64,000 nt of DNA from Acidimicrobiia bacterium (GTDB lineage: Bacteria; Actinomycetota; Acidimicrobiia; Spongiisociales; ZC4RG35): NCBI GenBank assembly GCA_050741975.1, contig JBOGET010000120.1:17156-81155 (forward strand), in the 5' to 3' direction. This document shows positions 1,601 through 16,691 of this stretch, one piece after another (the first letter of the stretch is position 1; each line of letters starts with the position of its first letter). Below the pieces are notes generated by a model. That model ran no database searches. It was not told the DNA's origin and saw only the letters and a program-made list of their open reading frames with translations. Position numbers and translations under genes: made by a program.

Positions 1601-2422
1601 TCAATCGTGACCGTCGCGCCTCTCGTCGTCGGACGACCTGTCGTCGTCCTGCTCGTCCTCGCGTAGCTCCTCCTCTTCGTCGTGATCCATTTCCTTGTGA
1701 TCTCGATGCTCCTCGTCGTCCCGGTCATCCCAATGAGGCCTGCCCTCACCCCCACCATCCCCGAGCCTGGCCCCACCCTCCCGATTACCGGCACGCCCTT
1801 CGTCGTCGGTCTCGGAGCGCCGATCGATGCGATCGGCTACGAGGTCGCGCCACGACCGGGTGCGTTCGTCGCTGTCGAGCTCGCAGCCGGCAGCGGGCCC
1901 TTCGCCGGCTTGCTCGTGCTCGCCGCATTCAGGCCACTCTTCACGCTGGTCGTCCCGTGCGGCGAGGATCGGCTGAGACGAGCTCGGCTCGGCTGACGAT
2001 GTGTGTGGTTCGGCGGTCTCGGCGGTGGCCGAGTCGATGTCGCCCTCGGCCTCACCCTCCTCCGGGGGAGGGGCGAGAGCCGGCTCGGCGCCGTCCGAGG
2101 CGACTCCGACGGCTCCCTCGGGATAGGGAACGGGGATGGGGACAGGCAGGGCCCTGGCAACGTCCGCCACGACATCCTGGATCGGCGCAGGCAGACCCCC
2201 GGCGAGGGCCACGCCTCCCGTCCCCAAGACGGTGCCCAGGATGGCGGCCATCACCGCCAGGCGGACCGCCCGGGCCCGCCGGGCCGTATGGGCAGACCTT
2301 GCGGCCATGGCGGCGGTGGTCACATGGCGTGTTGCGGTCGGCTCGTCCGGTCCGGCCACGAGGTCGTCAGCCAGAGCCGACAGGAAGGCTTCAGGATCTC
2401 GGTACGGCTCTGGCTGGCGCAC
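1601..2422 (-). CDS. Putative membrane-anchored anti-sigma factor (single TM, acidic extracytoplasmic tail)
   Basis: Lies 30 nt downstream of the ECF sigma gene. Short cytoplasmic N-terminus, one TM helix (AVRLAVMAAILGTVLGTGGVALAGGL), and a D/E/H-rich C-terminus. No recognisable zinc-finger anti-sigma motif. Confidence 0.45.
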   Translation of the reverse strand: MRQPEPYRDPEAFLSALADDLVAGPDEPTATRHVTTAAMAARSAHTARRARAVRLAVMAAILGTVLGTGGVALAGGLPAPIQDVVADVARALPVPIPVPYPEGAVGVASDGAEPALAPPPEEGEAEGDIDSATAETAEPHTSSAEPSSSQPILAARDDQREEWPECGEHEQAGEGPAAGCELDSDERTRSWRDLVADRIDRRSETDDEGRAGNREGGARLGDGGGEGRPHWDDRDDEEHRDHKEMDHDEEEELREDEQDDDRSSDDERRDGHD

Positions 2423-2452: not shown

Positions 2453-3088
2453 TTACGTCTCGTCGAGCATCTCCTGCAGCGCCCTGCGTGCCCGATGCTG
2501 CAGCTGCTCGACCGACCCCGTGGTCCTCCCGGTGATCTCGGCCACCTGCTTCGAGGTCCAGCCACCCAGCGCCCGCAGGATCAGCACCTCGCTCTGGTCG
2601 TCGGTCAGCCGGTCGAGGAGACCGAGCAGGTCACCGAGTGCGACCGTGGCGAGAGCTTCTCCCTCCACGTCGTCGAGGGATGGAACCGCCTCGTGGATGC
2701 CGGTGTCCAACGGGTCCTCACGTCGCCGGGCGCGACGACGTATGTCGTCGACGCGGCGGGCCCTGGCGATGGTGAACACCCATGCCCTGAACCCTGGGGC
2801 ATCTCCGCGAAATCGTCCGATCCCGCGGGCGACGTCCACGAACACATCACCGAGCACGTCTTCGGCGTCGGGGATGCGACTGGCCCGGAGGTAGCCCAAA
2901 ACCTGGGGGGCGAGCCATTGGTAGAGGACGCGCCATGCTTCATCATCTCCGTGCCGGGCGGCACGGAGATGGATGCGAAACTGGCTGTCCGTGATGCCCG
3001 AACTTGGCCTCATGCAGGGTTTTGGGGGGACACGGAGCCTCGTCTTGGGCTCTTCTCGCCTCCCGGCATCGGGCGGAAGGGCAGTCAA
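2453..3088 (-). CDS. ECF-type RNA polymerase sigma-70 factor
   Basis: Sigma-70 region 2 (WRVLYQWLAPQVLGYL...DAEDVLGDVFVDVARGIGRFRG) and a region 4 HTH (SEVLILRALGGWTSKQVAEITGRTTGSVEQLQHRARRAL). The true start may be the internal Met at about 3013. Confidence 0.8.
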   Translation of the reverse strand: MTALPPDAGRREEPKTRLRVPPKPCMRPSSGITDSQFRIHLRAARHGDDEAWRVLYQWLAPQVLGYLRASRIPDAEDVLGDVFVDVARGIGRFRGDAPGFRAWVFTIARARRVDDIRRRARRREDPLDTGIHEAVPSLDDVEGEALATVALGDLLGLLDRLTDDQSEVLILRALGGWTSKQVAEITGRTTGSVEQLQHRARRALQEMLDET

Positions 3089-3271: not shown

Positions 3272-3562
3272 TCAGGTAAGCCGGCGCACCTCGCCGTCCA
3301 CGACGAGCTGGTCGACGATGCCGACCACGACGGCGCGGATCGCTCCCCGGTCCAGGCCCAGGATCTGGCGGGCGGAGCTCCCCTCGTCGAGGATGAGCAC
3401 GGTGTCACCCACCCCGGCGTCGACGACGTCCACGGCAATGGTGTAGCCCGATGGCTTCCCCTCCACGTCCTGGAGGTCGCAGAGGAGGAGTCGGTGCCGG
3501 TCGAGCAGGGGGATGTTGATGGTGGAGATCACCGTCCCCGCCACCCGTCCCACCTTCATCAC
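3272..3562 (-). CDS. BMC vertex (pentamer) shell protein, EutN/CcmL/PduN family (BMC-P)
   Basis: MMKVGRVAGTVISTINIPLLDRHRLLLCDL...GYTIAVDVVDAGVGDTVLILDEGSSAR matches the PF03319 pattern. A 4-nt overlap with the upstream gene. Confidence 0.85.
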   Translation of the reverse strand: MMKVGRVAGTVISTINIPLLDRHRLLLCDLQDVEGKPSGYTIAVDVVDAGVGDTVLILDEGSSARQILGLDRGAIRAVVVGIVDQLVVDGEVRRLT

Positions 3563-3834
3563 TTCTCCTCCAGATGCACGTCATCGACGATCCCCACGAT
3601 GGCATGGTCGACCGGTACGAATCGCTCGGGCAGCGCTTCGGCCGCTTCCCGCGAGGAGACGAAGTAGACCAGCTCACCGGGCCCGGCCATGGACACCGCG
3701 TCGGCGGCGACCAGGGTCTCCCCGGCGGCCTGCTCGAACTTGTCGAGCGGCTGGACGATGAGAAAACGCACCCCTTCCAGACCGAGGACCTTCTCGGTGG
3801 CCACCACACTGCCCAGGACACGGCCTAGTTGCAT
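3559..3834 (-). CDS. BMC vertex shell protein (BMC-P), second paralog
   Basis: MQLGRVLGSVVATEKVLGLEGVRFLIVQPLD...LVAADAVSMAGPGELVYFVSSREA follows the EutN/CcmL fold pattern. Confidence 0.85.
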   Translation of the reverse strand: MQLGRVLGSVVATEKVLGLEGVRFLIVQPLDKFEQAAGETLVAADAVSMAGPGELVYFVSSREAAEALPERFVPVDHAIVGIVDDVHLEEK

Positions 3835-3835
3835 C

Positions 3836-4447
3836 TCACCCGTCCCCGGCGACGGAGGATACCCGGCTCATGAAATGAAGCTCACCACGCAGATTGTCCG
3901 CCATCTCGTCGTGGAGCTGGGCGATGAGATCCGACCGGACGAGCATGCCATGGTCCCGGGCCCGGTCGGTGGCGGCGTCGAGAGCCGCCTCGACCTCGGC
4001 CACCACACCCGAGAACAGCAGGTAGCCTTTGCCCCCGAGCCCGTCGGCGAGACGGATGGCGGCCAGGCCCACATCGGCTGCCTTGACCCCCGCATCGGCG
4101 GCGTCGATGGCGGCGGCGACAGTCGTGGTCTCCACCACTCCCAATGCCTCGTCCCCGACCGGCGCCATGGTGCTGTTCCCGGTCACCGCTTCGACCACGG
4201 ACGGATGGATGTCGGGGAGAAACACCATGTCGGCCAGGGTCTCCGACCCGACCTCGGTGCCCGCCCTGACCGCCTCCTCGACACTGGCGGTGTCCCCGCT
4301 GACGAGGACCAGGTACTTGCCCGGGTGCACCGTGCCGGCGTAGATGGCACCCAGCGGCGCCGTCTTGACCATGGCGTCACCGGCGACGATGCCGGCGCTG
4401 ATCGAGCCGAACTCGAGGAGAGCGATTGCCGGGTCGCGCTCAGACAA
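3836..4447 (-). CDS. BMC-T tandem-domain shell protein (PduT/CcmO-like)
   Basis: Two PF00936-like domains. Domain 1 is ALLEFGSISAGIVAGDAMVKTAP.... Domain 2 is ALGVVETTTVAAAIDAADAGVKAADVGL.... Confidence 0.8.
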   Translation of the reverse strand: MSERDPAIALLEFGSISAGIVAGDAMVKTAPLGAIYAGTVHPGKYLVLVSGDTASVEEAVRAGTEVGSETLADMVFLPDIHPSVVEAVTGNSTMAPVGDEALGVVETTTVAAAIDAADAGVKAADVGLAAIRLADGLGGKGYLLFSGVVAEVEAALDAATDRARDHGMLVRSDLIAQLHDEMADNLRGELHFMSRVSSVAGDG

Positions 4448-5897
4448 TGCGCAGGGCCCCGACCACGGTCACCCTCCGCACCCGGGAGAAGGTGCGGGGC
4501 CGGGTCATCCCCTCCCCGGTCGGGCTGGCGATGGAGAAAGAGGTGAACCCCTCTCCGCCCTGGCCCAGGCCGTTGAAGTTGGAGCCGTTGGCCACGAAGA
4601 TGCTGCAGTTCATGGCCCGGGCCATCCGGGTGATGGTCTCGACGTTGGTGCTGTGGATGGAGGCCGTGTGCCGGAACCCATGCTCGGAGCGCACCGCCAG
4701 ATCGATGGCATCCTCCACGTTGCCCACCCGGACCACCGGCATCACAGGCATCATCTGCTCAGTCCACACCAGGTTGTGCTCCCTGGGCACCTCGGCGACG
4801 ACGAGACGGGTGTCCTCGCCGGTGGTCACACCGATCTCGGCCAGGATCTTGGCAGCGTCCTTGCCGATCCACTCCGGGTTGATCATCCCCGGCTTCCCGG
4901 GTGGCCCCATCTCCCTGAAGATCACCCGCTCCAGACGCTTCAGCTCGTGCTCCTTGAGCCGGTAGGCCCCGGCGGAGACCATGGCTTGGACCAGACGGTC
5001 GGCCACGGTGTCGACCACGATCGTCGTCTTCTCGTCTGTGCAGATCACGTTGTTGTCGAACGACGCCCCCTTGACGATGGCCCGTCCTGCCCCCTCGACG
5101 TCGGCGGTCTGGTCGACGACGGCAGGGGGATTGCCCGGCCCGGCCGTTATCGCCTTCTTGCTGGTCTTCAGGGCCTCCTTGACCACCCCCGGGCCCCCGG
5201 TCACCAGGAGCACGCTGACCTCGGGGTGGTTCATCAGTTCCCTGGCCGACTCCAGGGTCGGCGACGGAACGGCGGTGACCAGGTCGGACGGGCCGCCGGC
5301 GCCGACGATGGCCCGATTCAAGATCTGGACGTTCTCCACCGAGACCAGCCGGGCATTGGGGTGGACGTTGAAGGTGACGGCGTTCCCGGCGGAGACGATG
5401 GCAATGGCGTTGTTGATGATGGTCGAGGTGGGGTTGGTGGTCGGGGTGATCGAACCGATCACGCCGTATGGGGCGTACTCGGTGACCATCATCCCGGCGT
5501 CGCCGGTGACCACCTGGGGCTCCAAGTCCTCGGGCCCAGGGGTGCGGGTCGTCACCAGGCGGTTCTTCATCGCCTTGTCCTCACCCCGCCCCAGACCGGT
5601 CTCCTCGGCGGCCATGTAACCGAGCCGCTCCCCCTCCCGCAACATGGCGGCCCGCATGGCGTCGACGATGCTCTTGCGGGCCTCCAGCCCCATCTCCCGG
5701 TAGCCGAGGAAGGCGGTCCGGGCCGCCGACACCGCCTGCTCGATGTCGGCATGGATCCCGTCGCCGAGTTGGACGTCGGAGACGGCGAGATCGTCTGCGG
5801 CGCGCAGGGCAGGGGCCGCCCGACCCGAGATCTCGGCGGCGGCAACCCGGCCCCTGACCCGCTCGATGATGGCCTGGATCTCTGCGTCGCTCAGCAT
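4440..5897 (-). CDS. CoA-acylating aldehyde dehydrogenase (PduP/EutE family) with N-terminal encapsulation peptide
   Basis: Aligns along its full length with PduP-type AldDH (GVIGSITPTTNPTSTIINNAIAIVSAGNAV, catalytic FDNNVICTDEK, C-terminal SPTGEGMTRPRTFSRVRRV). N-terminal LSDAEIQAIIERVRG is an amphipathic helix ahead of the catalytic core. Confidence 0.9.
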   Translation of the reverse strand: MLSDAEIQAIIERVRGRVAAAEISGRAAPALRAADDLAVSDVQLGDGIHADIEQAVSAARTAFLGYREMGLEARKSIVDAMRAAMLREGERLGYMAAEETGLGRGEDKAMKNRLVTTRTPGPEDLEPQVVTGDAGMMVTEYAPYGVIGSITPTTNPTSTIINNAIAIVSAGNAVTFNVHPNARLVSVENVQILNRAIVGAGGPSDLVTAVPSPTLESARELMNHPEVSVLLVTGGPGVVKEALKTSKKAITAGPGNPPAVVDQTADVEGAGRAIVKGASFDNNVICTDEKTTIVVDTVADRLVQAMVSAGAYRLKEHELKRLERVIFREMGPPGKPGMINPEWIGKDAAKILAEIGVTTGEDTRLVVAEVPREHNLVWTEQMMPVMPVVRVGNVEDAIDLAVRSEHGFRHTASIHSTNVETITRMARAMNCSIFVANGSNFNGLGQGGEGFTSFSIASPTGEGMTRPRTFSRVRRVTVVGALRIV

Positions 5898-5899
5898 CT

Positions 5900-6211
5900 C
5901 TACCCCGTGGGCGCCTCCTCCCGGCCCTTGTGATATCTCTCCTCGCCGCCCACGTCCCAGGAGTCGACGATCGCCATGATCACCGCATCCACGGGGCGGT
6001 CCCGGGTCAGCTCGGTCTGACGGGCAGAGCTGCCCGAGGCGTAGAGCACCACCTCATCGACCCCGGCGCCGACTGCGTCCACCGCCACCACATAGCCACC
6101 GGTGTCGGAATTGTCGGCGTCGAGCTGACGCACCACCAGGAACTTCATACCCTCCATGAGGGCCTCCTTGCGGCTGGCGACCAGTGTCCCCGCAACGCGG
6201 CCTAGATGCAC
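5900..6211 (-). CDS. BMC vertex shell protein (BMC-P), third paralog
   Basis: [31 protein letters not shown]...[27 protein letters not shown] is EutN/CcmL-like. Confidence 0.8.
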
Positions 6212-6238
6212 AGTGCCATCTCCCGCCCTCGCCGCCGG

Positions 6239-6541
<303 letters not shown>

Positions 6542-6576
6542 GAAGCTGCTCCTTTCGTTGACTTCGGTTCATCGAT

Positions 6577-7236
6577 TCAACCCGATCCTGCGTCCCGCCC
6601 GGAGAGCCCCTCGAGCGCCGCCACGGCCGCCTGCCATCCGACGTCGATGTCCCGCTCTTCGCCACCCAGGTAGACCCGGCCCATCGAGCCGAAGCTGCGC
6701 ACCTCGAGGACGTTGATCTCCGCCGCCTTCTCCGCCTCGTTGGCTGCCAGTGAGGCATAGGCGGCAGGCTCGCACTCGAGGACGTAGAGGGTTTGGCCGG
6801 GGATGATCATCTGACCGTGACGGGTCCGGTTGATGAGCTGGGCATGGTGGTCGTCCAGCCGACGAATGATCTGCGAGGATAGGATGCGGGGCTTGATGCG
6901 GTCGTCCTCGGTGCTCTCGATGCCGTCGAGGATTGCCGCCCCGGCCGCCCTGGTCTCGGCCTGGTCGGGAGAGTGCACCTCGAGGACCCCGTAATAGCGC
7001 TCGATGATCTGCAGCCCGGGTTTGACGGAAGTCGCCTTGAGGGCGACATCGGTCAGGCGGTTGATCTCGATCCCGGGGGCCACCTCGACCCAGAGGGAGG
7101 CATCGCCGGCGAGAGGGAGGAAGCCCTGGGCCACGGTCCCGAGGAAGGCGGCGTACTGGGGCTGGAGGCTGTCCAGGAACGCAAACGACCTCAGCTCAAT
7201 ACCTCTCGTCACCACTACCTCCATCCCTCTTGCCAA
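6577..7236 (-). CDS. Permuted tandem BMC-T shell protein (EutL/PduB-like)
   Basis: About 219 aa with two BMC-like domains. ...[20 protein letters not shown] resembles EutL ...PNPAEVRAGLDAMIAHIENG. The second domain [44 protein letters not shown] resembles the AADAMVKAA...GGG...VAAVKAAV core. The start is uncertain (Met at 7236 or 7224) and overlaps the DeoC 3' end by about 30-40 nt. Confidence 0.6.
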
Positions 7237-8029
7237 CGATCTCGATCCCGGCCGAAGCCCCGATTCTGGTCGCCCCTGCGGCGATCATGTCTTCCGCGTC
7301 ACCCGTGGTGCGGACCCCACCCGAGGCCTTCACCCCCATGTTCGGCCCCACCGTCTCCCTCATCAACGCCACGTCGTACACGGTTGCCCCGCCCGGGCCG
7401 AACCCTGTGGAGGTCTTGACGAAGTCGGCCTTGGCCTGTTTGGCCAGGGCCGAGGCGATGACCTTCTCCTCGTCGGTGAGCAAGGCCGTCTCCAGGATCA
7501 CCTTGCACAAGCCGCCGACCTCGTGGGCGGCGTCGACCACCTTCTCCATGTCCTTCAACACCAACTCGTGGTCGCTGGACTTGAGGGCTCCGATGTTGAG
7601 CACCATGTCGACCTCGCGCGCGCCATCCCTCAGGGCCCGGCGTGCCTCCATCGCCTTCACCTCCGGCGTGGTCGCTCCCAGCGGGAACCCGATCACGGTG
7701 CACACCGGGACCGAGGTGCCCCGGAGGTTCTCGGCCGCTCGCTTGACCCAGGTGGGGTTGATGCACACGGAGGCGAAGTGGTACTGCTCCGCCTCACGGC
7801 AGAGTTGGTCGATGTCGGCGGCGGTCGCCTCCGGTTTGAGCAGGGTGTGGTCGATGTATCGGGCCATGTCGAGGGGGACCTCCGCCGCCTCGCCGTGGAA
7901 GGCAACCCGGTCGGCTCCGTTGGCCACGACCTCGCGAACCTTCTCCCCGGTGTCGCAGACGTCGTAGCGGGCGGACAGCGCGGCCAGCACCTCCCGGGTG
8001 ACCATCTCGACGAGAGTCTCCCGGTTCAT
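7196..8029 (-). CDS. deoC: Deoxyribose-5-phosphate aldolase (class I, DeoC) with ~50-aa N-terminal encapsulation-peptide extension
   Basis: [11 protein letters not shown]...[10 protein letters not shown]...[11 protein letters not shown]...[11 protein letters not shown]...[14 protein letters not shown]...[10 protein letters not shown] aligns with B. subtilis-type DeoC. The start ATG at 8029 overlaps the rpiB stop (ATGA). The extension [23 protein letters not shown] is an amphipathic helix plus linker. Confidence 0.9.
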
Positions 8030-8649
8030 CCGGTGTCCTGTCTCATTCCGACTTTGGAGTATTGCTGCTCGATTGCGTCGATCTTGGCAACCCGGCGGGC
8101 GTGCCGGTCGCCGCCCCATTCGACCGAAAGCCACTCTTCGACGATCTGCCAGGCCAGTGCATCGCCGATCAAGCCCGCTCCCAGGGTGAGGACGTTGGCG
8201 TGGTTGTGCTCCCGGCTGTTGCGGGCGGTGGACAGGTCGTGACAGGGTGCGGCGCGGACACCGGGGACCTTGTTGGCCACCATCGCCGAGCCGATGCCGG
8301 CCCCATCGACGATGACTCCGTAGCGGCAGGCGCCCGATGCCACCTCACTGGCGACCGCATGGGCGAAGTCGGGGTAGTCGACCGAGTCGTGCGAATCCGT
8401 GCCACAGTCGAGTACCTCGTAGCCCGCCTCCTTCAGGCGGAAGCCGATCTTCTCCTTGAGCGGGTACCCGCCGTGGTCGGACCCGATGGCGATCCTCGTC
8501 TTCGTGTCGCCGGGCACCGTCGTCTGCGGGGGCGAGCCGGCCTCCGCGCGCGGAGGCTGATCGGATCCGATGACGCCGTCGATGACACGCTCGACGAGCG
8601 AGCGGACTTCCTGCTCTGTGGGTGAGCTCGGGCCGGCGGGAGATGTCAT
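8026..8649 (-). CDS. rpiB: Ribose-5-phosphate isomerase B (RpiB/LacAB family) with ~55-aa N-terminal extension
   Basis: [18 protein letters not shown]...[17 protein letters not shown]...[24 protein letters not shown]...NHANVLTLG is the RpiB fold. N-terminal [17 protein letters not shown] helix followed by a Pro/Thr linker. It is the first gene of the operon. Confidence 0.85.
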
Positions 8650-8726: not shown

Positions 8727-9398
8727 ATGATGCCTCGCATGGCCGATCGGGACCCTGCCTTTCTCTGGGAGACCGAGGCGCTTCGCACCTCGGCGACGTC
8801 TCCGGGCGGCCCGCCACCCATCGCGCGATCGGCGCCGGCCGACTGGCTGACCTTGCGCCAGGCGAGCGCCGCCACCGGGATCCCGGTGTCGACCCTCCGC
8901 AACTGGGCCCGGAAGGGCAAAGTCGCCAGCTCGCTCGAGGAGACCCCCGCCGGGGCCCGTCGAATGGTCTCGCTGAAGGGGGTTGAGGACCGGGCCCGTC
9001 AGTTGGGACAGAATGTCGACGCGGTGGTCGAGACGATGGGTACGGAAATCCCCCCGACCTCGGTCCGGCAGGATCAGGTCTCACAACCCCCGGGGACGGT
9101 GCTGGTCCCCATCGATGCCTGGGACAAGATGCTGCTCCAACTGGGAAACCTGCACCAGGCCGGTCAACAATTGGCCGAGGCCAGGGAACGGGCTGCCCGG
9201 GCAGAGACCGAGGCCGACTTCCTCCGGGAGCGGTTGGCCGAGCTGAGATCCTCCAAACCCGGCTCCGACCCGGTCCACCCGACGGTGGAGGCGCCGCCTC
9301 CTATCGAGGAGGAGCCCGAGCCGGCCAAACCAACGAGGATGCCCAGCTTCACCGCCTATTTGTGGCGTCTTGCCGTGTCGGACAGGCGCCGGAAGTAG
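8727..9398 (+). CDS. Excisionase/MerR-superfamily helix-turn-helix DNA-binding protein with coiled-coil C-terminus
   Basis: WLTLRQASAATGIPVSTLRNWARKGKV is an excisionase-family HTH. C-terminal AEARERAARAETEADFLRERLAELR is helical. The track ORF starts at 8622; Met at 8727-8739 is more likely because it clears the rpiB start. Confidence 0.5.
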   Translation: MMPRMADRDPAFLWETEALRTSATSPGGPPPIARSAPADWLTLRQASAATGIPVSTLRNWARKGKVASSLEETPAGARRMVSLKGVEDRARQLGQNVDAVVETMGTEIPPTSVRQDQVSQPPGTVLVPIDAWDKMLLQLGNLHQAGQQLAEARERAARAETEADFLRERLAELRSSKPGSDPVHPTVEAPPPIEEEPEPAKPTRMPSFTAYLWRLAVSDRRRK

Positions 9399-9416: not shown

Positions 9417-10106
9417 TCAAGGTCGCGCGGGAGATTCCTCGAAGATCCGCCCGTCGTTGAGGTGGAGCACGCGGTGGGCGTGGTCGGCCAGACCTGGGTC
9501 GTGCGTCGCCACCAGGGCGGCGAGACCGAGGCGGTCGACGAGCTCGCGGATCATCCTCATCAACTTCAGCCCGGTCTCCGAGTCGAGCTGGCCTGTCGGC
9601 TCGTCGGCAAGGAGGATCGACGGCTCGGTGACCAGTGCCCGCGCCAGCGCCACACGCTGCTGTTCTCCGCCCGAGAGCTCCTCCGGCCGATGGTCGGCCC
9701 GGGCGGTCAACCCGACCCGGCTCAGGACCTCGTCCACCAGCCTCGCCCTCTCCACGGGGTCGACCCTGCTCACCCGGAGCGGGAGCTCGACGTTCTCGGC
9801 GGCGGTGAGGATCGGGATCAATCCGCCCGACTGCACCACCAGCGAGACCTTGCTCCTTCGCAGCTCGGAGAGCTCACGCTCGCCGGCGGTGGAGAGATCG
9901 AGCCCATTCAGGCTGATCGAGCCCTCGTCGGGGCGGTCGATCCCGGCCAGCATCGACAAGAGGGTGGTCTTTCCCGCTCCCGACCGGCCCAGCAGGAGAA
10001 CCAGTTCGCCGGGGCGTAGGGCGAGATCGACCCCGTCGATGGCCCTGATCTCAGCGTCTCCCACCTGGAATCGGCGGTGCAGGTCGGTGGCCAGCAATAC
10101 CGTCAC
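9417..10106 (-). CDS. ABC transporter ATP-binding protein (MacB/FtsE-like)
   Basis: Walker A LLGRSGAGKTT, signature LSGGEQQRVALARAL, Walker B LLADEPTGQLD. The likely GTG start overlaps the upstream gene's stop (GTGA). Confidence 0.85.
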   Translation of the reverse strand: MTVLLATDLHRRFQVGDAEIRAIDGVDLALRPGELVLLLGRSGAGKTTLLSMLAGIDRPDEGSISLNGLDLSTAGERELSELRRSKVSLVVQSGGLIPILTAAENVELPLRVSRVDPVERARLVDEVLSRVGLTARADHRPEELSGGEQQRVALARALVTEPSILLADEPTGQLDSETGLKLMRMIRELVDRLGLAALVATHDPGLADHAHRVLHLNDGRIFEESPARP

Positions 10107-11023
10107 GAACCGATGCCTTTGAAGTCCGAAGGCCATACCCGCACGTGGTCCTCCTCCAACGTCAGCTTCACCCGTTTCGCCATCCCCAGCCGCTCCACAT
10201 ACTCGGCGGGCAGCTGGAGCCTCCCGGCGCGATCGAGAACAGCGAACTCCGAGGAGGGAACCCGGCCTTCCTCGTCACGGTGAATGATCTCGGTGGCAGT
10301 CCTCCCGTCGCGAATGGCAACGGTCCGGTCGACGTGCTCGGCTATGAGGGGGTCATGGCTGACCACGACCGCCGACATCCCTAGCTCCTCGTTGAGAGTC
10401 CGGAGCGTGCTGAGGACCTCGTGGCTGGTGGCGCTGTCGAGGTCACCGGTCGGCTCGTCGGCGAGGAGCACCTCGGGATCGTTGGCCAGCGCAACCGCCA
10501 GAGCCACCCGCTGCTGCTCTCCGGGGGAGAGCCGCCCCGGCCGGTGGTCGAGCCGGTGGGACATCCCCACCATCGCGAGCAGCTGGCGGCCTCTGCTCAT
10601 CCTGGCCCACTTGGGGAGACCGGCCAGCGCCGAAGGGAGGTCGACGTTCTCCAGCGCCGTCAGATAAGGAAGGAGATTGCGGGCGCTCTGCTGCCAGACG
10701 AACCCGACCGCTCGCCTCCGGTATTGGACCCGGCGTCGGCGCGACATGCGGAGCAGCTCGAAATCACCTACCCGGACCTTCCCCGCCGTCGGGGTGTCGA
10801 TGGCGCCCAGGATGTTGAGCAAAGTCGACTTCCCGCTTCCCGACGCGCCCACTACCGCCACCATCTCGCCGCGGTCCACCACCAGGTCGAGACCCTGGAG
10901 GGCGACCACCTCGAGCTTCGATGACGAGTAGATCTTGACGAGGTTGTCGCAGACGATGTGGGCGCCCTCGCCAAACCCGGGCGCATGTTGATGGTCGGGG
11001 ATCATCACTGGCTCGATCATCAT
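10103..11023 (-). CDS. ABC transporter ATP-binding protein with ~70-aa C-terminal extension
   Basis: VVGASGSGKSTLL, LSPGEQQRVALAVAL, LLADEPTGDLD. Extra C-terminal domain (...EFAVLDRAGRLQLPAEYVERLGMAKRVKLTLEEDHVRVWP). Confidence 0.85.
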   Translation of the reverse strand: MMIEPVMIPDHQHAPGFGEGAHIVCDNLVKIYSSSKLEVVALQGLDLVVDRGEMVAVVGASGSGKSTLLNILGAIDTPTAGKVRVGDFELLRMSRRRRVQYRRRAVGFVWQQSARNLLPYLTALENVDLPSALAGLPKWARMSRGRQLLAMVGMSHRLDHRPGRLSPGEQQRVALAVALANDPEVLLADEPTGDLDSATSHEVLSTLRTLNEELGMSAVVVSHDPLIAEHVDRTVAIRDGRTATEIIHRDEEGRVPSSEFAVLDRAGRLQLPAEYVERLGMAKRVKLTLEEDHVRVWPSDFKGIGS

Positions 11024-13680
11024 CGCACCTCGCTCCGAAGAGCCTCAACCGCATCGGCCGCGCCCAACCTCCTGCCGGCGACGACGGCGACGACCACTGC
11101 CACGATGACGAGGACCGCCGGCGCCACCAGGAGCCCAAGCGGGTCGACGGTCGGGCCCACCCTCCCCGGGGCCCCGGTGAGCCGGGCGAGGGCGGACGCC
11201 TCCACCCCGAGCCTCACCGCTACGATGCCGGCCAGGACTCCGGCGAGGGTGGCGGGAACCACCGGGACCACGAGCTCCAGCGTCACCAGCGCCGACATCG
11301 ACGGCCGCGGCACCCCGATGAGGTCGAGATGGGCCGCCTCGTTGGCCCGGCGCGACCCAGTGAGCAAGGCAACCAACAAGATGGTGGCGACACCAAAGAT
11401 GAGCGACACCACCGACACCGTCCGGAATCCTCCCGGGACCGCGGCCGAGAAGGGGGAGGCGCTCAGATCGGCGACGACGCCGCGCCGCACCGTCACCGAC
11501 GCCGTGGACTCGACGCCTTCTACCAACTCGGCGATCGCCACGTCCCCGTCGACCGGCGCATCGGGTGTGAGGTCGAGATAGAGGCGGTCGAGGCGCTGCT
11601 CGATCAGCGGCGCGGCTCTGATCGCCTCATCGAGGAAGGTGACGACAAACGGCGCCTGGACCGACGGGAACTCGTCTACTACCCCCTCCACCTCGACCAT
11701 GACCCTTTGGCCGCCAAGGATGAGGGCAATGACGTCGCCCGGCTCACCCACCCCCGGAGAGACCAGGGCGGACAGCCGGGCCCCACGTGAAGGCAACGGA
11801 ACCGGGATCGGCGAACCAGAGCCGATCCTCGACAGGGCGTCGAGGTCGGCGGCGAGAAACCCGACATCTCGGGCCTGTCCCAGGACCTTGACGTTCTCCG
11901 CGTAGGCGAGGGTGGTCTCGCCGACCTCAGCCATCGACTCGAGACCCGCCTCCTCCACGATGGTGGCCACCGCGTCCGACTCGATCATCAGGTCGGCGCC
12001 CACGGTGCGCCACCCCGTGCGCTCTTGCTCGGTGCGAAGTGTGGTCTCGAACACGAAGGCGTAGGTGGCGGTGGTGACGACCAGGACCACGACCACCGGC
12101 AGCGCCAGACCCTGCCGGTCCCGGCTGAACCGCCGGAGCACCAACGCCGCCACCAGCCCACGTCCACGACGGGCGGCGGCGGCCAGGGAAGGGGCCACGA
12201 GCGAGTAGAGCCGTACCAGCACCAAGGCCGCGGCCAGTGCGAGAAGCGGCGGGGCGAGGGCGAGCAAGAGGTCGAACCGCCCGAGCGGCTCCGCCCGTCG
12301 CCGAGCGAGGAGGATGGCGACCACCACGGCGAGGGCCACCACACCCACCTCGACGGCCGCCCTACCCACCCTCTCCAAACGTCCCGTCGCCCGGGGAGCG
12401 TCCCACCACACTGTCACAATCGCCACGATGAGCGTCACGAGGAAGGCGATTGCCCCTGCCTGCCACGCCGACAACCCGTCGAGAGCAGTCAGACGGTCTG
12501 CCACGATGGCGGCCAGCGTCCCTGCCAGGGCCGAGAGTGCCAAGGTCGCCGCGGTCGACGTCGTGATCTGGAGCCCGTTCGCTCCCCGGTCCCGCGCCAG
12601 TTCGGTGGTGTGCCGCCTTCTCTCGGCCAGGAACCGTGCAAGCACGAGGATGGCGGCGAGTGCTGCCAGAGCCGCCGAGATGCCGGCCACCAAGAGGAAG
12701 CTCCGAGTCGCCTCGAGGTCCGCCTCCGCCCGTGTGAAGATGTTGGGGAGCCCGCTCTGGATGAGAAGGCCGTCCCCGGCGGGATGGCTCAGCTCGGAGA
12801 GCCTGGCGAAGCCGAGCGAGAGGGCGTCCCGCCCGGCGGGGTCGTAACGCCCCGGATCGACCAGGAACCGCCAGGTGACCCTGGGTTCGATGACGCCCAA
12901 CCCGACCGCTTCGACGGCAGCCAGCGAACCGTCGTCCACGAGTGCGGTGACGTCGACCAACTTGTTGAGGTTCGCATCGAACGACACCGCCGGGTCGAGA
13001 AGAGCGATATCCCCGCCCCAGAACCTCTCGTCGCGGTCGACGCCCTCGAACAGGCCGGTCACCACGACCTCGAAGGGCATCGCCCGTCGACCAGCGAGGA
13101 ACAGCCTGCGACCATCGCCGGTCAGCCTCACCTCGACCACATCGCCGACGCCAACCTCCGTCGCCGAGGCGGAGGCCGAGCTCAGCGCCACCTCCAAGGG
13201 CTCGGTGCCGACCTTGGGCCTCGGCCAGGAGCCCTCGACGAGGGCGAGGTGGTCCCGTGCGGTTGGCTGAACACGGAAGTTGAAGGTCCGCAGGAGCTCC
13301 CCGGTGGGGGTGGTCGGGCTCGTCATTCCCACTTGCGGAGCCTCCATTTCCACCCGTCGATCGGCGACGAGGGCGGCGACCTGGGGATGGAGCTCCTCAT
13401 CGAGGATCCGCCCGCCCTCGCCGGTGAGGGCACTCAACGACGCCACCGAGGTGAACTGCGTGGCGGTGATGTGACGCGTCAGCGGCGAGGACTGCGACAC
13501 CAGGTAGGGGAACTGGGCCGCCTCGACCGATTGGTAATCGGCACTGAGTGCCGCGGCGGCGTGGGTGAGGGACCCCACCAACACCATGACGGCGAGGCTC
13601 ACCGGGCCGTCCCACCGGGCAAGCAGGGTCACGGGGCGAAGCAGCGACCAGCCCCCCCGACCGACCGGCTCGCTCACCAT
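11020..13680 (-). CDS. ABC transporter permease, double FtsX-domain type (TM-ECD-3TM-TM-ECD-3TM)
   Basis: Two large extracytoplasmic domains, each followed by an FtsX-like TM cluster. The track ORF is extended to 14229; Met at about 13680 abuts the upstream gene's stop. Confidence 0.75.
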   Translation of the reverse strand: MVSEPVGRGGWSLLRPVTLLARWDGPVSLAVMVLVGSLTHAAAALSADYQSVEAAQFPYLVSQSSPLTRHITATQFTSVASLSALTGEGGRILDEELHPQVAALVADRRVEMEAPQVGMTSPTTPTGELLRTFNFRVQPTARDHLALVEGSWPRPKVGTEPLEVALSSASASATEVGVGDVVEVRLTGDGRRLFLAGRRAMPFEVVVTGLFEGVDRDERFWGGDIALLDPAVSFDANLNKLVDVTALVDDGSLAAVEAVGLGVIEPRVTWRFLVDPGRYDPAGRDALSLGFARLSELSHPAGDGLLIQSGLPNIFTRAEADLEATRSFLLVAGISAALAALAAILVLARFLAERRRHTTELARDRGANGLQITTSTAATLALSALAGTLAAIVADRLTALDGLSAWQAGAIAFLVTLIVAIVTVWWDAPRATGRLERVGRAAVEVGVVALAVVVAILLARRRAEPLGRFDLLLALAPPLLALAAALVLVRLYSLVAPSLAAAARRGRGLVAALVLRRFSRDRQGLALPVVVVLVVTTATYAFVFETTLRTEQERTGWRTVGADLMIESDAVATIVEEAGLESMAEVGETTLAYAENVKVLGQARDVGFLAADLDALSRIGSGSPIPVPLPSRGARLSALVSPGVGEPGDVIALILGGQRVMVEVEGVVDEFPSVQAPFVVTFLDEAIRAAPLIEQRLDRLYLDLTPDAPVDGDVAIAELVEGVESTASVTVRRGVVADLSASPFSAAVPGGFRTVSVVSLIFGVATILLVALLTGSRRANEAAHLDLIGVPRPSMSALVTLELVVPVVPATLAGVLAGIVAVRLGVEASALARLTGAPGRVGPTVDPLGLLVAPAVLVIVAVVVAVVAGRRLGAADAVEALRSEVR

Positions 13681-16600
13681 TGCTCCACTCCACGTCGGGC
13701 CGGCGCCGCCCTCATCGTGCGGGCCCGTCCTACCACCGCCAGGAGCATGACCACCAGCACCAGCCCGATCCCGGCAACCACGAGGAGCGCCCGAATCGCC
13801 GGAAGCTCCACGGTGGCGGCAGGCACCGGTTGGCGCCCATCGGACCCGAGCGTCACCGATCCGAGCAGGAGGTAGGAGAGGAGGACCCCCAGCCCCCCAC
13901 CGGCGAGCCCTGAAAAGAGGAGCAAGGCGCCATGCTCGACCGCCAGAGCGGTCGACAGTTGGCGCGAGCTCATCCCGGCCATGATCATGACGATCATCTC
14001 GGAGCGCCGCTCCTCGAGGGCGGAGGCCAGCGCCGTCGCCATGATCACCGCAGCCAGCAAGGCAGCCAGGGCTGCACCGAGATACGACGCCGCCAGAAGG
14101 CCCAGCGGCAGCGGGTCGCCCAAGAGCTCGGCGAGCCGCCCGGCGCGGGTGGTCACCTCGGCGGCGCCGGCCGCCAGCAGCGCCGACCGAGCCGCCGCAG
14201 GGTCGCCTCGATCCAAAGAAGCCCACCACTCGTCAGGGCCGCCCACTCTTCCCGACGCGGCGAACTCCAGCGTCGCAAGAGCAGCGCGGTCCATGACGAT
14301 GATCCCGTCGTCGGGGTCGCCCGTGGGAAAGAGCTCGACCACGCCCACTACCTCGAACTCACGGCGCAGGCCGGCGAAGACGAGCTGGAAATGATCCCCG
14401 TCGCCGACGACCGACGCCGAGGCAAAGGTCTCGTTGACGATCACCGCGATTGGCGCGTCGACCGGAGGGGTGGACGCCAGGTACCTGGTCACGGTGTTGA
14501 CACCGTCCGATTCTCCCGGCAGCGCAACCCAATCGAGGGTCAAGGAGACGGTTCCGGAGTCCGACTCGACGATCACCGCTTCCGGACGCGCATCGGGCGC
14601 ATCCACCACCACCCCGATCACCGTCAGCGGCGTCGAGGCCTCATCGAGGGCTCCTGCGCCCTCCAACCATTCTCTCGGGGCCAGGGCGGGACCTGCCGCG
14701 CCGGAAAGCACATGGAGCACGCCTTGGAAGTCGCGGACCACGAGCTCGACCCGGGCCGGTCGGTCGGTGACGACGGCGACTCGTCGGGGAGCTCCCAGCT
14801 CCACTCCGAGACCGGCCCAGGCCCCTCCCAACTCGTCGGCGCGCAGAATGCCACCAAGGGGACGTCCTCGTACCAGGCCGATGTCCGCCACCCCGGGCCC
14901 CACACCGAGCACGACGCCACCGTCGGTGGCCGAGGCCAGCGACAGGGCCCTCCGGGTGACTGGGACGACCGAACTCACACCTGGCGCCGCTGCGAAGCCG
15001 GTGCCTTCGCCGAAGGGCGCCGGGTCGGTCTCCAGAGCCCTCTCCGGGATGATCAAGGCGTCGGACCCGACCTGGTGCGAGGCGCGATCGGCCTGCGAGT
15101 TGGTCCAGGTGGCGTCAAATGCAAGGGCGAAGACCAGCATCGCCACCGCCAGCACGGTGAGGATCGATGAGTGGGTATGACGCCCAGCACGCGAGCCGAA
15201 GTTCCTCATCCCCAACCACAGCGGGACGGCCTCGGTACCTGAGGTCAGCCTGGCTGTTCCGGCGCTGGCCGCCGGAACGAGACGGGCCGCGACCGAAGGG
15301 GCCAGGAGCAACGCCACCGCCGGAACCGCGAGGAGGGCGGGATCGCCGCCGCTCGCCAGCCGGGGCGGGTTGAAGAGCAGGACCGCCATCGCCACCACAG
15401 CGATCCCAGCCAGAACCAAGTCGATCCGGGTGCGGCGGAGGAGGTCGGGGGCGGGTGACCCGATGCGTGAGGCCATGAGAGCCACCAGCGCCACGGCCAC
15501 GGCGATGGCGCCACCGGCGAAGACGTAGGCGGTGGCGTCGAGTCCCGCTTCGAGGATCAGTCCGGCCTCCACGAAGGTGGGCAGCCTTCCCAGGGCGTCG
15601 ACTGCCCAGGATGCCAACCACGGTCCGGCGACCACTGCCGGGATCCCGAGGAGAGTCGCCTGCAAGGCTCCCGCGATCATCATCTGCCGGCGTGTGCCGC
15701 CCCGCAGCTCGATCGTTTGGTAGTGGCGGCGCAGCGACGCCATCAACGACGCGGCTGCCGACCACATGGCAAAGCCGGCCATCAACGAAAGCTGCACGGA
15801 GGTGGCGTTGATCCCGGCGGAGGAGACCTCCACCTTCCTCCGCAGGTCTGCTTCGAGAGTCGGGAAGTCGGATTCGACGCCGACCTCGAGCGCCGCCAGA
15901 CGCTCGTCGACAGACCGCATGCCGTCGGAGACCCGCCCCAGGTCATCCGAGGTGATCGATCCGAAATCGGGAAAGACCCGCCATTCCTGACGGGCCCCAT
16001 AGCCCTCCACCACGTCGTCGAAGCTCCGGCCTGAGACGACCAGAGGCCCGGTGACGACGAACTCCGCCGTGACCCGGCGCCCGGCCGTCTCCAGGAGCTC
16101 GCCCCACCAGAACGGGTCCTGGGCGTCGACAACCCGGAAGATCCCCGCCACCGACACGGTCAGTCGGTCATGGGAGCCACCGGAGACCTCGATTCCGACA
16201 CTGTCTCCCACAACAAGACCGAGGGCGGCGGCGGCCTGCTCGGAGAGCGCAACCGGAAGCGTTTCTCCCGGTCCGACGTCTCCCGGCCAGGTCCCTTCCA
16301 CCAGCTCGGCGTGCCCCTCGATTCCCTCATGGGCGACGATGACGGTGGTGTCATAGGGCGTGGGATCGTCTTGCCAGGTGAAGGGCGCAGACTGCCGGAT
16401 CTCCGACACGGTCGCACCGGGGAGCCCATCGGAGACGACCCCGGTCACCGCGGCCGACAACTCATCCATGGAGGCAGCCCGGACCGGCGCCGAGCCCCGC
16501 AGGCCGACCGCCTCCACCGGCGCCGCCGCCAGCGCGGCGCGGAGCCCGGCGTCGCCAACAGCAGAGGAGAGGATCGGGCCTACCGACACCGAGACCGCAG

Positions 16601-16691
16601 CGACGAGGAGGATGAGGGCGGCAGAAGCCGACGCCACCGGGCGGGCGCCGATCGCCCTCAGGCTTCGCCCCAGGCTCCCAGAGCCGCTCAC
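13674..16691 (-). CDS. ABC transporter permease, double FtsX-domain type (paralog)
   Basis: 1005 aa with the same architecture as its neighbour: N-terminal TM, large ECD, FtsX TM clusters. Confidence 0.75.
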   Translation of the reverse strand: MSGSGSLGRSLRAIGARPVASASAALILLVAAVSVSVGPILSSAVGDAGLRAALAAAPVEAVGLRGSAPVRAASMDELSAAVTGVVSDGLPGATVSEIRQSAPFTWQDDPTPYDTTVIVAHEGIEGHAELVEGTWPGDVGPGETLPVALSEQAAAALGLVVGDSVGIEVSGGSHDRLTVSVAGIFRVVDAQDPFWWGELLETAGRRVTAEFVVTGPLVVSGRSFDDVVEGYGARQEWRVFPDFGSITSDDLGRVSDGMRSVDERLAALEVGVESDFPTLEADLRRKVEVSSAGINATSVQLSLMAGFAMWSAAASLMASLRRHYQTIELRGGTRRQMMIAGALQATLLGIPAVVAGPWLASWAVDALGRLPTFVEAGLILEAGLDATAYVFAGGAIAVAVALVALMASRIGSPAPDLLRRTRIDLVLAGIAVVAMAVLLFNPPRLASGGDPALLAVPAVALLLAPSVAARLVPAASAGTARLTSGTEAVPLWLGMRNFGSRAGRHTHSSILTVLAVAMLVFALAFDATWTNSQADRASHQVGSDALIIPERALETDPAPFGEGTGFAAAPGVSSVVPVTRRALSLASATDGGVVLGVGPGVADIGLVRGRPLGGILRADELGGAWAGLGVELGAPRRVAVVTDRPARVELVVRDFQGVLHVLSGAAGPALAPREWLEGAGALDEASTPLTVIGVVVDAPDARPEAVIVESDSGTVSLTLDWVALPGESDGVNTVTRYLASTPPVDAPIAVIVNETFASASVVGDGDHFQLVFAGLRREFEVVGVVELFPTGDPDDGIIVMDRAALATLEFAASGRVGGPDEWWASLDRGDPAAARSALLAAGAAEVTTRAGRLAELLGDPLPLGLLAASYLGAALAALLAAVIMATALASALEERRSEMIVMIMAGMSSRQLSTALAVEHGALLLFSGLAGGGLGVLLSYLLLGSVTLGSDGRQPVPAATVELPAIRALLVVAGIGLVLVVMLLAVVGRARTMRAAPARRGVEQW

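Follow-up and report, generated by a model that had tools for sequence, protein, structure and literature searches.

The operon and the N-terminal extensions of its enzymes

The stretch of DNA described in this report, referred to as the window, is 64,000 nucleotides of contig JBOGET010000120.1 (assembly GCA_050741975.1), from a metagenome-assembled genome (MAG) of an Acidimicrobiia bacterium, and has a GC content of ~65-70%. Pfam scans and tblastn searches revealed a nine-gene bacterial microcompartment (BMC) operon at positions 3272-8649 on the minus strand, which encodes, in order, an RpiB-like protein, DeoC (deoxyribose-phosphate aldolase, DERA), a CcmP-like BMC-Tdp shell protein, a BMC-H protein, a BMC-P protein, an aldehyde dehydrogenase (AldDh), a BMC-Ts protein, and two further BMC-P proteins. 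Our subject is the N-terminal extensions of the enzymes, above all those of RpiB and DeoC, and their likeness to encapsulation peptides (EPs).

The RpiB-like gene (8026-8649, minus strand) encodes 207 aa that match Pfam PF02502 (LacAB_rpiB, E=1.6e-52) over aa 53-190, and a protein identical to it carries the RpiB name in an Acidimicrobiia MAG. The DeoC gene (7196-8029, minus strand) encodes 277 aa that match PF01791 over aa 56-261; the RpiB stop and the DeoC start overlap as ATGA. The most likely DeoC start is the ATG at 8029. All 23 homologues in the DeoC alignment (A2) begin at the equivalent position, with M or, in one case, with V from GTG, and are 276-277 aa long, a length shared by nearly all of the 120 closest DeoC homologues listed. 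The start at GTG 8134 given by a mechanical list of open reading frames (ORFs) agrees neither with homologue length nor with the conserved start and was discarded. The coordinates and the helices of both proteins picked out in the initial annotation proved to be accurate.

The extension of RpiB, first put at 55 aa, is present but is closer to 51 aa long: the Pfam domain starts at aa 53, and every solved RpiB aligns from query residue ~50-52, with nothing aligned ahead of query residue ~45-52. It begins with an EP-like amphipathic helix (aa 11-27; nucleotides 8569-8619, minus strand), followed by a Pro/Thr-rich linker (aa 28-51; nucleotides 8497-8568, minus strand) that is variable in both sequence and length. 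Among 23 RpiB homologues with 74-100% identity (A1), the majority fraction is 0.92 in the helix, with no indels, and 0.93 in the core, compared to 0.43 in the linker, which has 13 insertion columns. The hydrophobic moment of the helix, 0.58, ranks third among the 193 windows of the protein and was reached by 387 of 10,000 shuffles (3.9%); its hydrophobic residues are paired (V..LV..VI..VI), and prolines sit on both flanks. In an AlphaFold2 (AF2) model, DSSP assigned a helix to aa 12-27 and coil to what follows, with the predicted local distance difference test (pLDDT) below 50 and low in the linker as well. The model was built on a shallow alignment (23 sequences, 70-100% identity), with a mean pLDDT of 57.6 and a core of partly low confidence, and we used its secondary-structure call alone, as weak support for the predicted helix. 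By every sequence-level measure tried, the RpiB extension has the appearance of an EP, and the succession of helix and Pro/Thr-rich linker claimed at the outset is textbook EP architecture by the definition in PMC12339742.

Many RpiB extensions of other phyla that belong to the Asp-type class described below contain a second module, “VITExDV...G...L.V...AIVTPLArD.A...GI,” with or without an EP helix (for example P0254, P0261, and P0271, and loci L009, L014, L016, L019, L022, L036, L040, and L064). It weakly matches the C terminus of Pfam PDU_like (PF15953; E ~0.01) and is absent from the window RpiB.

The DeoC extension is ~52-55 aa long, in agreement with the 50 aa first given: the Pfam DeoC domain starts at aa 56, and alignments to solved DERAs begin at query residue 53-59. 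Most of these structures have few residues ahead of that point, the exceptions being 4xbs, 5h91, 4xbk, and 3r12, with ~40 unaligned N-terminal residues, and 3oa3, with ~55. The EP-like helix occupies aa 3-20 (nucleotides 7970-8023, minus strand), and the segment between helix and barrel occupies aa 21-52 (nucleotides 7874-7969, minus strand). The AF2 model with DSSP shows helices at aa 3-18 and 27-36 and a strand at aa 42-44, with pLDDT values of 43-73 overall, 43-61 in the first helix, and 49-73 after it. The segment past the helix has a majority fraction of 0.88, without indels, compared to 0.91 for the core. Of the helix and linker originally proposed for DeoC, the helix stands and the linker does not; judged by its conservation, aa 21-52 is a conserved sub-domain and not a flexible linker.

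Start codon and helix are kept in every aligned homologue of both proteins (23 for RpiB, 23 for DeoC). For codon comparisons, the closest locus is L001, a related Acidimicrobiia contig encoding the relative P0120. Relative to L001, the RpiB helix has 10 synonymous changes and 3 conservative nonsynonymous ones, and DeoC aa 27-52 has 9 synonymous changes and 1 conservative nonsynonymous one. Synonymous changes outnumber nonsynonymous changes in both extensions in this comparison, with a ratio that drops against the more distant loci L002 and L003. Both extensions are translated and under purifying selection.

An alignment of DERA extensions from 16 loci of Actinomycetota, Chloroflexota, Acidobacteriota, Spirochaetota, and Bacteroidota revealed a modular organization: a helix with the motif LVExITREVLAxL, which recurs in the Chloroflexota, Acidobacteriota, Spirochaetota, and Bacteroidota loci; a variable linker; usually a four-cysteine (Cys4) motif, C-x2-3-C-x3-5-C-x3-C; and a segment, KVRxVVxxGAxRV, that is kept across phyla. 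The variable linker and the Cys4 motif, ~25 columns in the case of the window, are missing from the DERAs of the window and of L002, and one Cys of the Cys4 region is left in the window protein. Extensions bearing the Cys4 motif were seen in L003, L004, L005, L008, L010, L012, L014, L020/L023, L029, L030, and L042. The motif may be a metal or Fe-S site; its cysteines go unmentioned in the main text of Dwyer 2024 (PMC11585597).

The third enzyme, an acylating AldDh of 485 aa (4440-5897, minus strand; PF00171), also has an EP-like helix at its N terminus (SDAEIQAIIERVRGRV), ahead of a Pfam domain that starts at aa 48. The helix itself, SDAEIQAIIERVRGRVA, spans aa 3-19 (nucleotides 5841-5891, minus strand). 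There is no C-terminal extension on this protein.

Catalytic residues and distribution of the RpiB-like proteins

The aldolase core of DeoC is conventional. It shares 64-67% identity with solved Bacillus and Geobacillus DERAs (best E=6.7e-83, from query residue 53), and the top Foldseek matches of its model are DERAs, at 64% identity. Residues D141, K205, and K234 are invariant in the DeoC alignment. We take these residues, matched through the established motifs EVDMV, VKTSTG, and VKASGG and the account of Dwyer 2024, to be the counterparts of E. coli D102, K167, and K201. The protein has the Schiff-base Lys and the catalytic Asp/Lys triad by which a class I DERA is recognized, and on these residues the window DERA should be active.

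The RpiB-like protein is altered at its catalytic site. It has D115 at the position of Cys66 and A117 at that of Thr68 (E. coli numbering), with “ivDgagig” aligned opposite the “viCgtGlG” of solved RpiBs, and the residues of a catalytically competent RpiB (Cys66 together with Thr68, or the Glu75 of the M. tuberculosis type) are not found in it. From this site, the protein is probably not a ribose 5-phosphate (R5P) isomerase. The same change defines a class that we call Asp type, in which all 126 representatives have Asp for Cys66 and 110 of the 126 have Ala for Thr68. At least 94% of these 126 proteins retain the equivalents of the E. coli pocket residues D9, H10, Y43, H99, N100, R133, H134, and R137. 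The pattern of substitution indicates that in Asp-type RpiBs the catalytic base is lost while the sugar-phosphate pocket is under selection, and this conservation fits poorly with a purely inert scaffold or a simple pseudoenzyme.

The extension follows the Asp-type class. In an exhaustive search of cluster representatives (50% identity), the 150 closest RpiBs include 96 whose N-terminal extension reaches 30 aa or more; 87 of the 96 are Asp type. Another 23 Asp-type proteins have a long C-terminal extension and no N-terminal one, and are probably RpiB-DeoC fusions. The few Cys-type proteins with an extension are mostly fused to a low-molecular-weight phosphatase.

Eighty loci from GTDB species representatives were scored for catalytic residue, upstream frame, DeoC, and shell genes, the extension being scored in part of the loci. 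Shell genes occur in the fetched locus of 24 of 45 Asp-type RpiBs, compared to 0 of 35 Cys- or Gly-type RpiBs (Fisher P=3e-8), and in loci with at least 8 kb on each side the counts are 12 of 20 and 0 of 17. A DeoC gene lies next to RpiB, or is fused to it, in 34 of the 45 Asp-type loci and in none of the 35 others. An extension or an RpiB-DeoC fusion was seen in the Asp class only, among the loci scored. The Cys- and Gly-type proteins, presumably housekeeping RpiBs and including those of the Acidimicrobiia loci L043, L047, L053, and L057, have no conserved EP-like extension. The exception is L075, with an upstream open frame of 115 codons that has no EP-like motif and is probably untranslated, given the GC-rich genome. 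The finding that was to count against EPs, the same extension in RpiB orthologs not associated with BMCs, was not made among these 35 non-Asp RpiBs. Within the window itself there is no second, housekeeping copy of RpiB or DeoC.

RpiB-DeoC fusion genes were found in L007, L013, L017, L018, L024, L026, L027, L028, L031, L044, L054, L059, and L065. In these genes the DERA helix (e.g., EDIERIAERVGELV and EDLARVAARIAELMGG) lies between the two domains, and the RpiB part has no N-terminal EP; the architecture agrees with that of the published SPU3 chimera (SPU, sugar phosphate utilizing).

Shell genes, flanking genes, and related loci

The remaining genes of the operon encode shell proteins. The BMC-Tdp gene (6577-7236, minus strand) encodes a CcmP/CsoS1D-like protein with a weak PF00936 match; read from the sequence, its likely start is GTG 7212 or ATG 7224. 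We presume the CcmP-like label to be correct, partly from sequence similarity. The ortholog in L001 contains CsoS1D_N (PF27545) and overlaps DeoC by 17 nucleotides. The BMC-H shell hexamer (6239-6541, minus strand; 100 aa) was identified by tblastn with PduA and CcmK2 (55-60% identity, E=1e-21 to 1e-23), and the BMC-Ts tandem-domain protein (3836-4447, minus strand; 203 aa) matches PF00936 twice (E=2.3e-33). Three BMC-P pentamers, all recognized by PF03319, are encoded at 5900-6211 (E=8.8e-28), 3559-3834 (E=2.2e-24), and 3272-3562 (E=1.1e-19), each on the minus strand. Neither a phosphotransacylase (PTAC) nor PduS was detected by Pfam in the operon or in the scanned flanking ORFs.

Divergent from RpiB is a putative regulator gene (8730-9398, plus strand) of the helix-turn-helix (HTH) MerR/HTH_17-like type, with weak MerR and HTH_17 matches; its in-frame ATG at 8730, read from the sequence, separates it from RpiB by 80 bp of intergenic sequence. 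In L001 the nine genes recur in identical order, together with a divergent HTH gene and a methionyl-tRNA synthetase (MetRS) neighbor. Its divergent HTH_17 gene, beside RpiB, encodes 219 aa and is syntenic with that of the window. L002 and L003 gave tblastn matches to the same gene set as the window operon.

Directly downstream of the last BMC-P gene lies an ECF-type sigma-70 gene (Sigma70_r2/r4; 2453-3088, minus strand), followed by an ORF of 273 aa (1601-2422, minus strand) that has no Pfam match and is possibly an anti-sigma factor; the pair is absent from the corresponding position in L001. On the other side, positions 9417-16691 (minus strand) contain two ABC ATPase genes and then two FtsX-like permease ORFs of ~1000 aa each. 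The latter two, at 11020-14229 and 13674-16691, overlap by ~550 nucleotides, and the start of the ORF at 11020-14229 is probably further in. This ABC/FtsX cluster sits between the BMC operon and metG and is absent in L001.

Assignment to the SPU group and the probable role of the extensions

SPU loci were defined by Axen et al. in 2014 on the presence of DeoC, RpiB, and AldDh (PMC4207490), and were widened by Sutter et al. in 2021 to >280 loci in seven subtypes, with EPs described on SPU AldDh and pfam01791 proteins (Supplementary Data 2 of PMC8217296). Dwyer, Sutter and Kerfeld reported in 2024 that every SPU DERA has an N-terminal extension, consisting of an amphipathic helix and two strands, that is missing in non-BMC DERAs; that SPU ribose 5-phosphate isomerases (RPIs) have a “typical N-terminal EP” and an unstructured linker; that both extensions are often missed by automated annotation; and that Asp replaces Cys66 in all SPU RPIs (PMC11585597). 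The initial annotation had presented an encapsulated RpiB as new biology, a claim overtaken by these reports: RpiB in SPU loci dates from 2014 (PMC4207490), the EPs from 2021 (PMC8217296), and the RPI EP from 2024 (PMC11585597). EP extensions on SPU RpiB and DeoC are already known, and the present finding is a rediscovery.

The subtype that the window operon resembles most closely is SPU3, which as published has Actinobacteria among its hosts, encodes AldDh, pfam01791, and pfam02502 with N-terminal EPs on AldDh and pfam01791, and has a shell of BMC-H, a BMC-P triplet, a CcmP-like BMC-Tdp, and BMC-Ts without PduS (PMC8217296). The window shares with SPU3 (PMC8217296, PMC11585597) the three enzymes, the order of RpiB before DeoC, and an operon free of PTAC and PduS; the shell set of one BMC-H, a BMC-P triplet, a CcmP-like BMC-Tdp, and a BMC-Ts; and the N-terminal EPs on AldDh, DERA, and RPI, with Asp for Cys66 in the last. 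As read from gene content, the operon fits the published subtype in enzymes, shell set, and N-terminal AldDh EP, all three. It differs from SPU3 in its DERA extension, which is without the variable linker and Cys4 motif present in most other lineages, and in an RPI linker of ~24 aa compared to ~75 aa, the figure given for SPU RPI. The supplementary files of Sutter 2021, some of which are covered here only in part, contained no “Acidimicrob” entry.

Subtype SPU6, suggested by the lack of PTAC and PduS, was rejected: the window has an N-terminal EP on AldDh and a CcmP-like BMC-Tdp, whereas the SPU6 AldDh EP is C-terminal and the SPU6 BMC-Tdp belongs to a different clade. The Chloroflexi SPU6 pair is nonetheless similar to the window pair in having adjacent genes, the same helix motif in its DERA extension (compare L005, L008, and L010), and an RPI with an EP helix and Asp. 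It differs in a DERA extension of ~70 aa that includes the Cys4 motif, compared to ~52-55 aa without it in the window, and in a GntR-like regulator where the window has an HTH_17/MerR-like one.

Canonical EPs, those of PduP, PduD, EutC, and CcmN (Fan 2010, Kinney 2012, and Aussignargues 2015, via PMC11585597 and PMC12339742), are amphipathic helices of ~18 residues at a protein terminus. Their hydrophobic residues are paired, a linker of poor conservation connects them to the cargo, and they are missing in non-BMC homologs and belong to proteins encoded beside shell genes. The window extensions share these features apart from the linker of DeoC, a likeness of architecture and not of demonstrated sequence homology. 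DeoC departs from the canonical EPs in having a conserved structured segment after the helix in place of the linker.

From gene content, architecture, conservation, selection, and co-occurrence, all of them observed directly, we infer a pathway and a role for the peptides. The operon most probably encodes an SPU3 metabolosome in which the N-terminal helices of the RpiB-like protein, DERA, and AldDh serve as EPs and the RpiB-like protein is a partner of DERA that does not isomerize R5P. Deoxyribose 5-phosphate would enter the shell, where DERA would yield glyceraldehyde 3-phosphate and acetaldehyde, and AldDh would trap the acetaldehyde as acetyl-CoA. Because there is no PTAC in the operon, the acetyl-CoA would exit through the pore of the CcmP-like BMC-Tdp. 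The three helices would co-aggregate the cargo and dock it at the inner face of the shell, and the RpiB-like protein would enter the organelle as a partner of DERA, a scaffold or adaptor, or possibly as a sugar-phosphate-binding subunit. Such a role has likenesses in CcmM and in the inactive, EP-bearing AldDh paralogs of GRM loci (PMC11585597), which also organize BMC cores and have an altered catalytic residue. Those proteins have unrelated folds, however, and the RPI pocket is otherwise highly conserved, which makes loss of function less certain for SPU RPI. The proposal in the initial annotation that EP-like extensions sit on the cargo of a metabolosome encoded at this locus is borne out by their architecture, their conservation, and their co-occurrence with shell genes and DeoC, and the helical propensity it called for appears in the AF2 models, at aa 12-27 of RpiB and aa 3-18 of DeoC.

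Several observations weigh against an SPU3 metabolosome with EP-tagged cargo. The pLDDT of both modeled helices is low (~40-60), and the alignments behind them are shallow. A profile hidden Markov model built from 46 RpiB EP helices and searched against the 698 ORFs of the window matched RpiB alone (28 bits); AldDh scored 1.8 bits (domain E=11), and DeoC was not among the matches. By this profile, no significant docking motif appears to be common to RpiB, DeoC, and AldDh. The DeoC extension of the window lineage, with no variable linker, departs from the canonical EP layout. In 8 of the 20 Asp-type loci with full 10-kb flanks (L014, L016, L022, L036, L040, L042, L048, and L064), no shell gene lies within 10 kb, so that an extension does not always go with a shell locus nearby. 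Finally, the papers cited here report no experimental encapsulation of any SPU enzyme, nor the loading of such an enzyme into shells by its peptide.

The RpiB-like protein could instead be an active enzyme that uses Asp115 as its base and isomerizes another sugar phosphate, its N-terminal peptide still being an EP; we regard this as possible, at well under even odds. The retention of the pocket across the Asp-type representatives would be unexpected in a decayed pseudoenzyme, promiscuity is known among RpiBs (PMC4207490), and Dwyer et al. left the possibility open (PMC11585597). Set against this, the Chloroflexi SPU6 RPI, the sole RPI assayed, has little or no R5P isomerase activity, no pathway joins RPI chemistry to DERA in a shell, and LacA, which likewise has Asp at the Cys66 position, relies on LacB for the catalytic Cys (PMC11585597).

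Somewhat less probable is that the DeoC extension functions chiefly as a structured accessory domain, in oligomerization, regulation, or metal binding, and not in shell targeting. Residues 21-52 are conserved like the core and are modeled as helix and strand at moderate pLDDT, the Cys4 motif is found in most other lineages, and Dwyer et al. modeled a helix and two strands, not a helix and a linker (PMC11585597). The first helix, however, is a distinct module, set off by a variable linker in most phyla, and it has the hydrophobic-pair pattern of EPs. Moreover, the SPU6 DERA is insoluble with its extension and soluble upon its deletion, which is typical EP behavior, and the stable RPI-DERA complex of that pair, which led to the scaffold hypothesis, forms without the extension (PMC11585597).

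We think it unlikely that the helices drive a shell-independent assembly, either condensates or an RPI-DERA super-complex, to which the link with BMCs is secondary. EPs alone are able to drive condensation (PMC12339742), and the eight shell-less loci keep their extensions, three of them (L014, L042, and L048) with an adjacent EP-bearing DeoC. Against this, in the window and in those Acidimicrobiia relatives whose contigs are long enough (L001-L003) the genes lie within a complete shell operon, and satellite loci are documented for the HO, FRAG, and SPU7 types (PMC8217296); the shell-less loci may be satellite loci or may reflect shell-independent use of the proteins. As for the idea that the extensions are artefacts of annotation, with sequence ahead of the genes wrongly read as translated in a GC-rich genome, the ORF list does contain many overlapping ORFs and stretches DeoC to the spurious GTG 8134, but the conserved start codons and helices, the synonymous excess relative to L001, the ATGA coupling of RpiB to DeoC, and the recurrence of the same helices across phyla make this highly improbable.

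Beyond the SPU3 metabolosome with EP-tagged cargo, we offer a tentative proposal that we consider more likely wrong than right. The SPU RpiB-like protein might bind sugar phosphate as a conserved subunit and serve DERA as sensor or gate, or might be an Asp-based isomerase for another substrate. The DERA extension would, in parallel, be a modular element made of EP helix, linker, Cys4 metal or redox module, and beta segment, of which the window lineage, without linker and Cys4, would be a natural minimal version.

Three small points add to what has been published. The Asp-type RPI clade keeps the whole phosphate and ring-opening pocket, which speaks against its being a simple pseudoenzyme. A Cys4 motif that has gone undiscussed is present in most SPU DERA extensions and is deleted in the window lineage. 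Of the RPI/DERA pairs that bear EPs, a substantial fraction have no shell gene within 10 kb. These additions leave the current picture of SPU organelles unchanged. The value of the finding itself is confirmatory. The published EP architecture of SPU cargo could be recovered from sequence alone in an Acidimicrobiia MAG, which supports the generality of the model.

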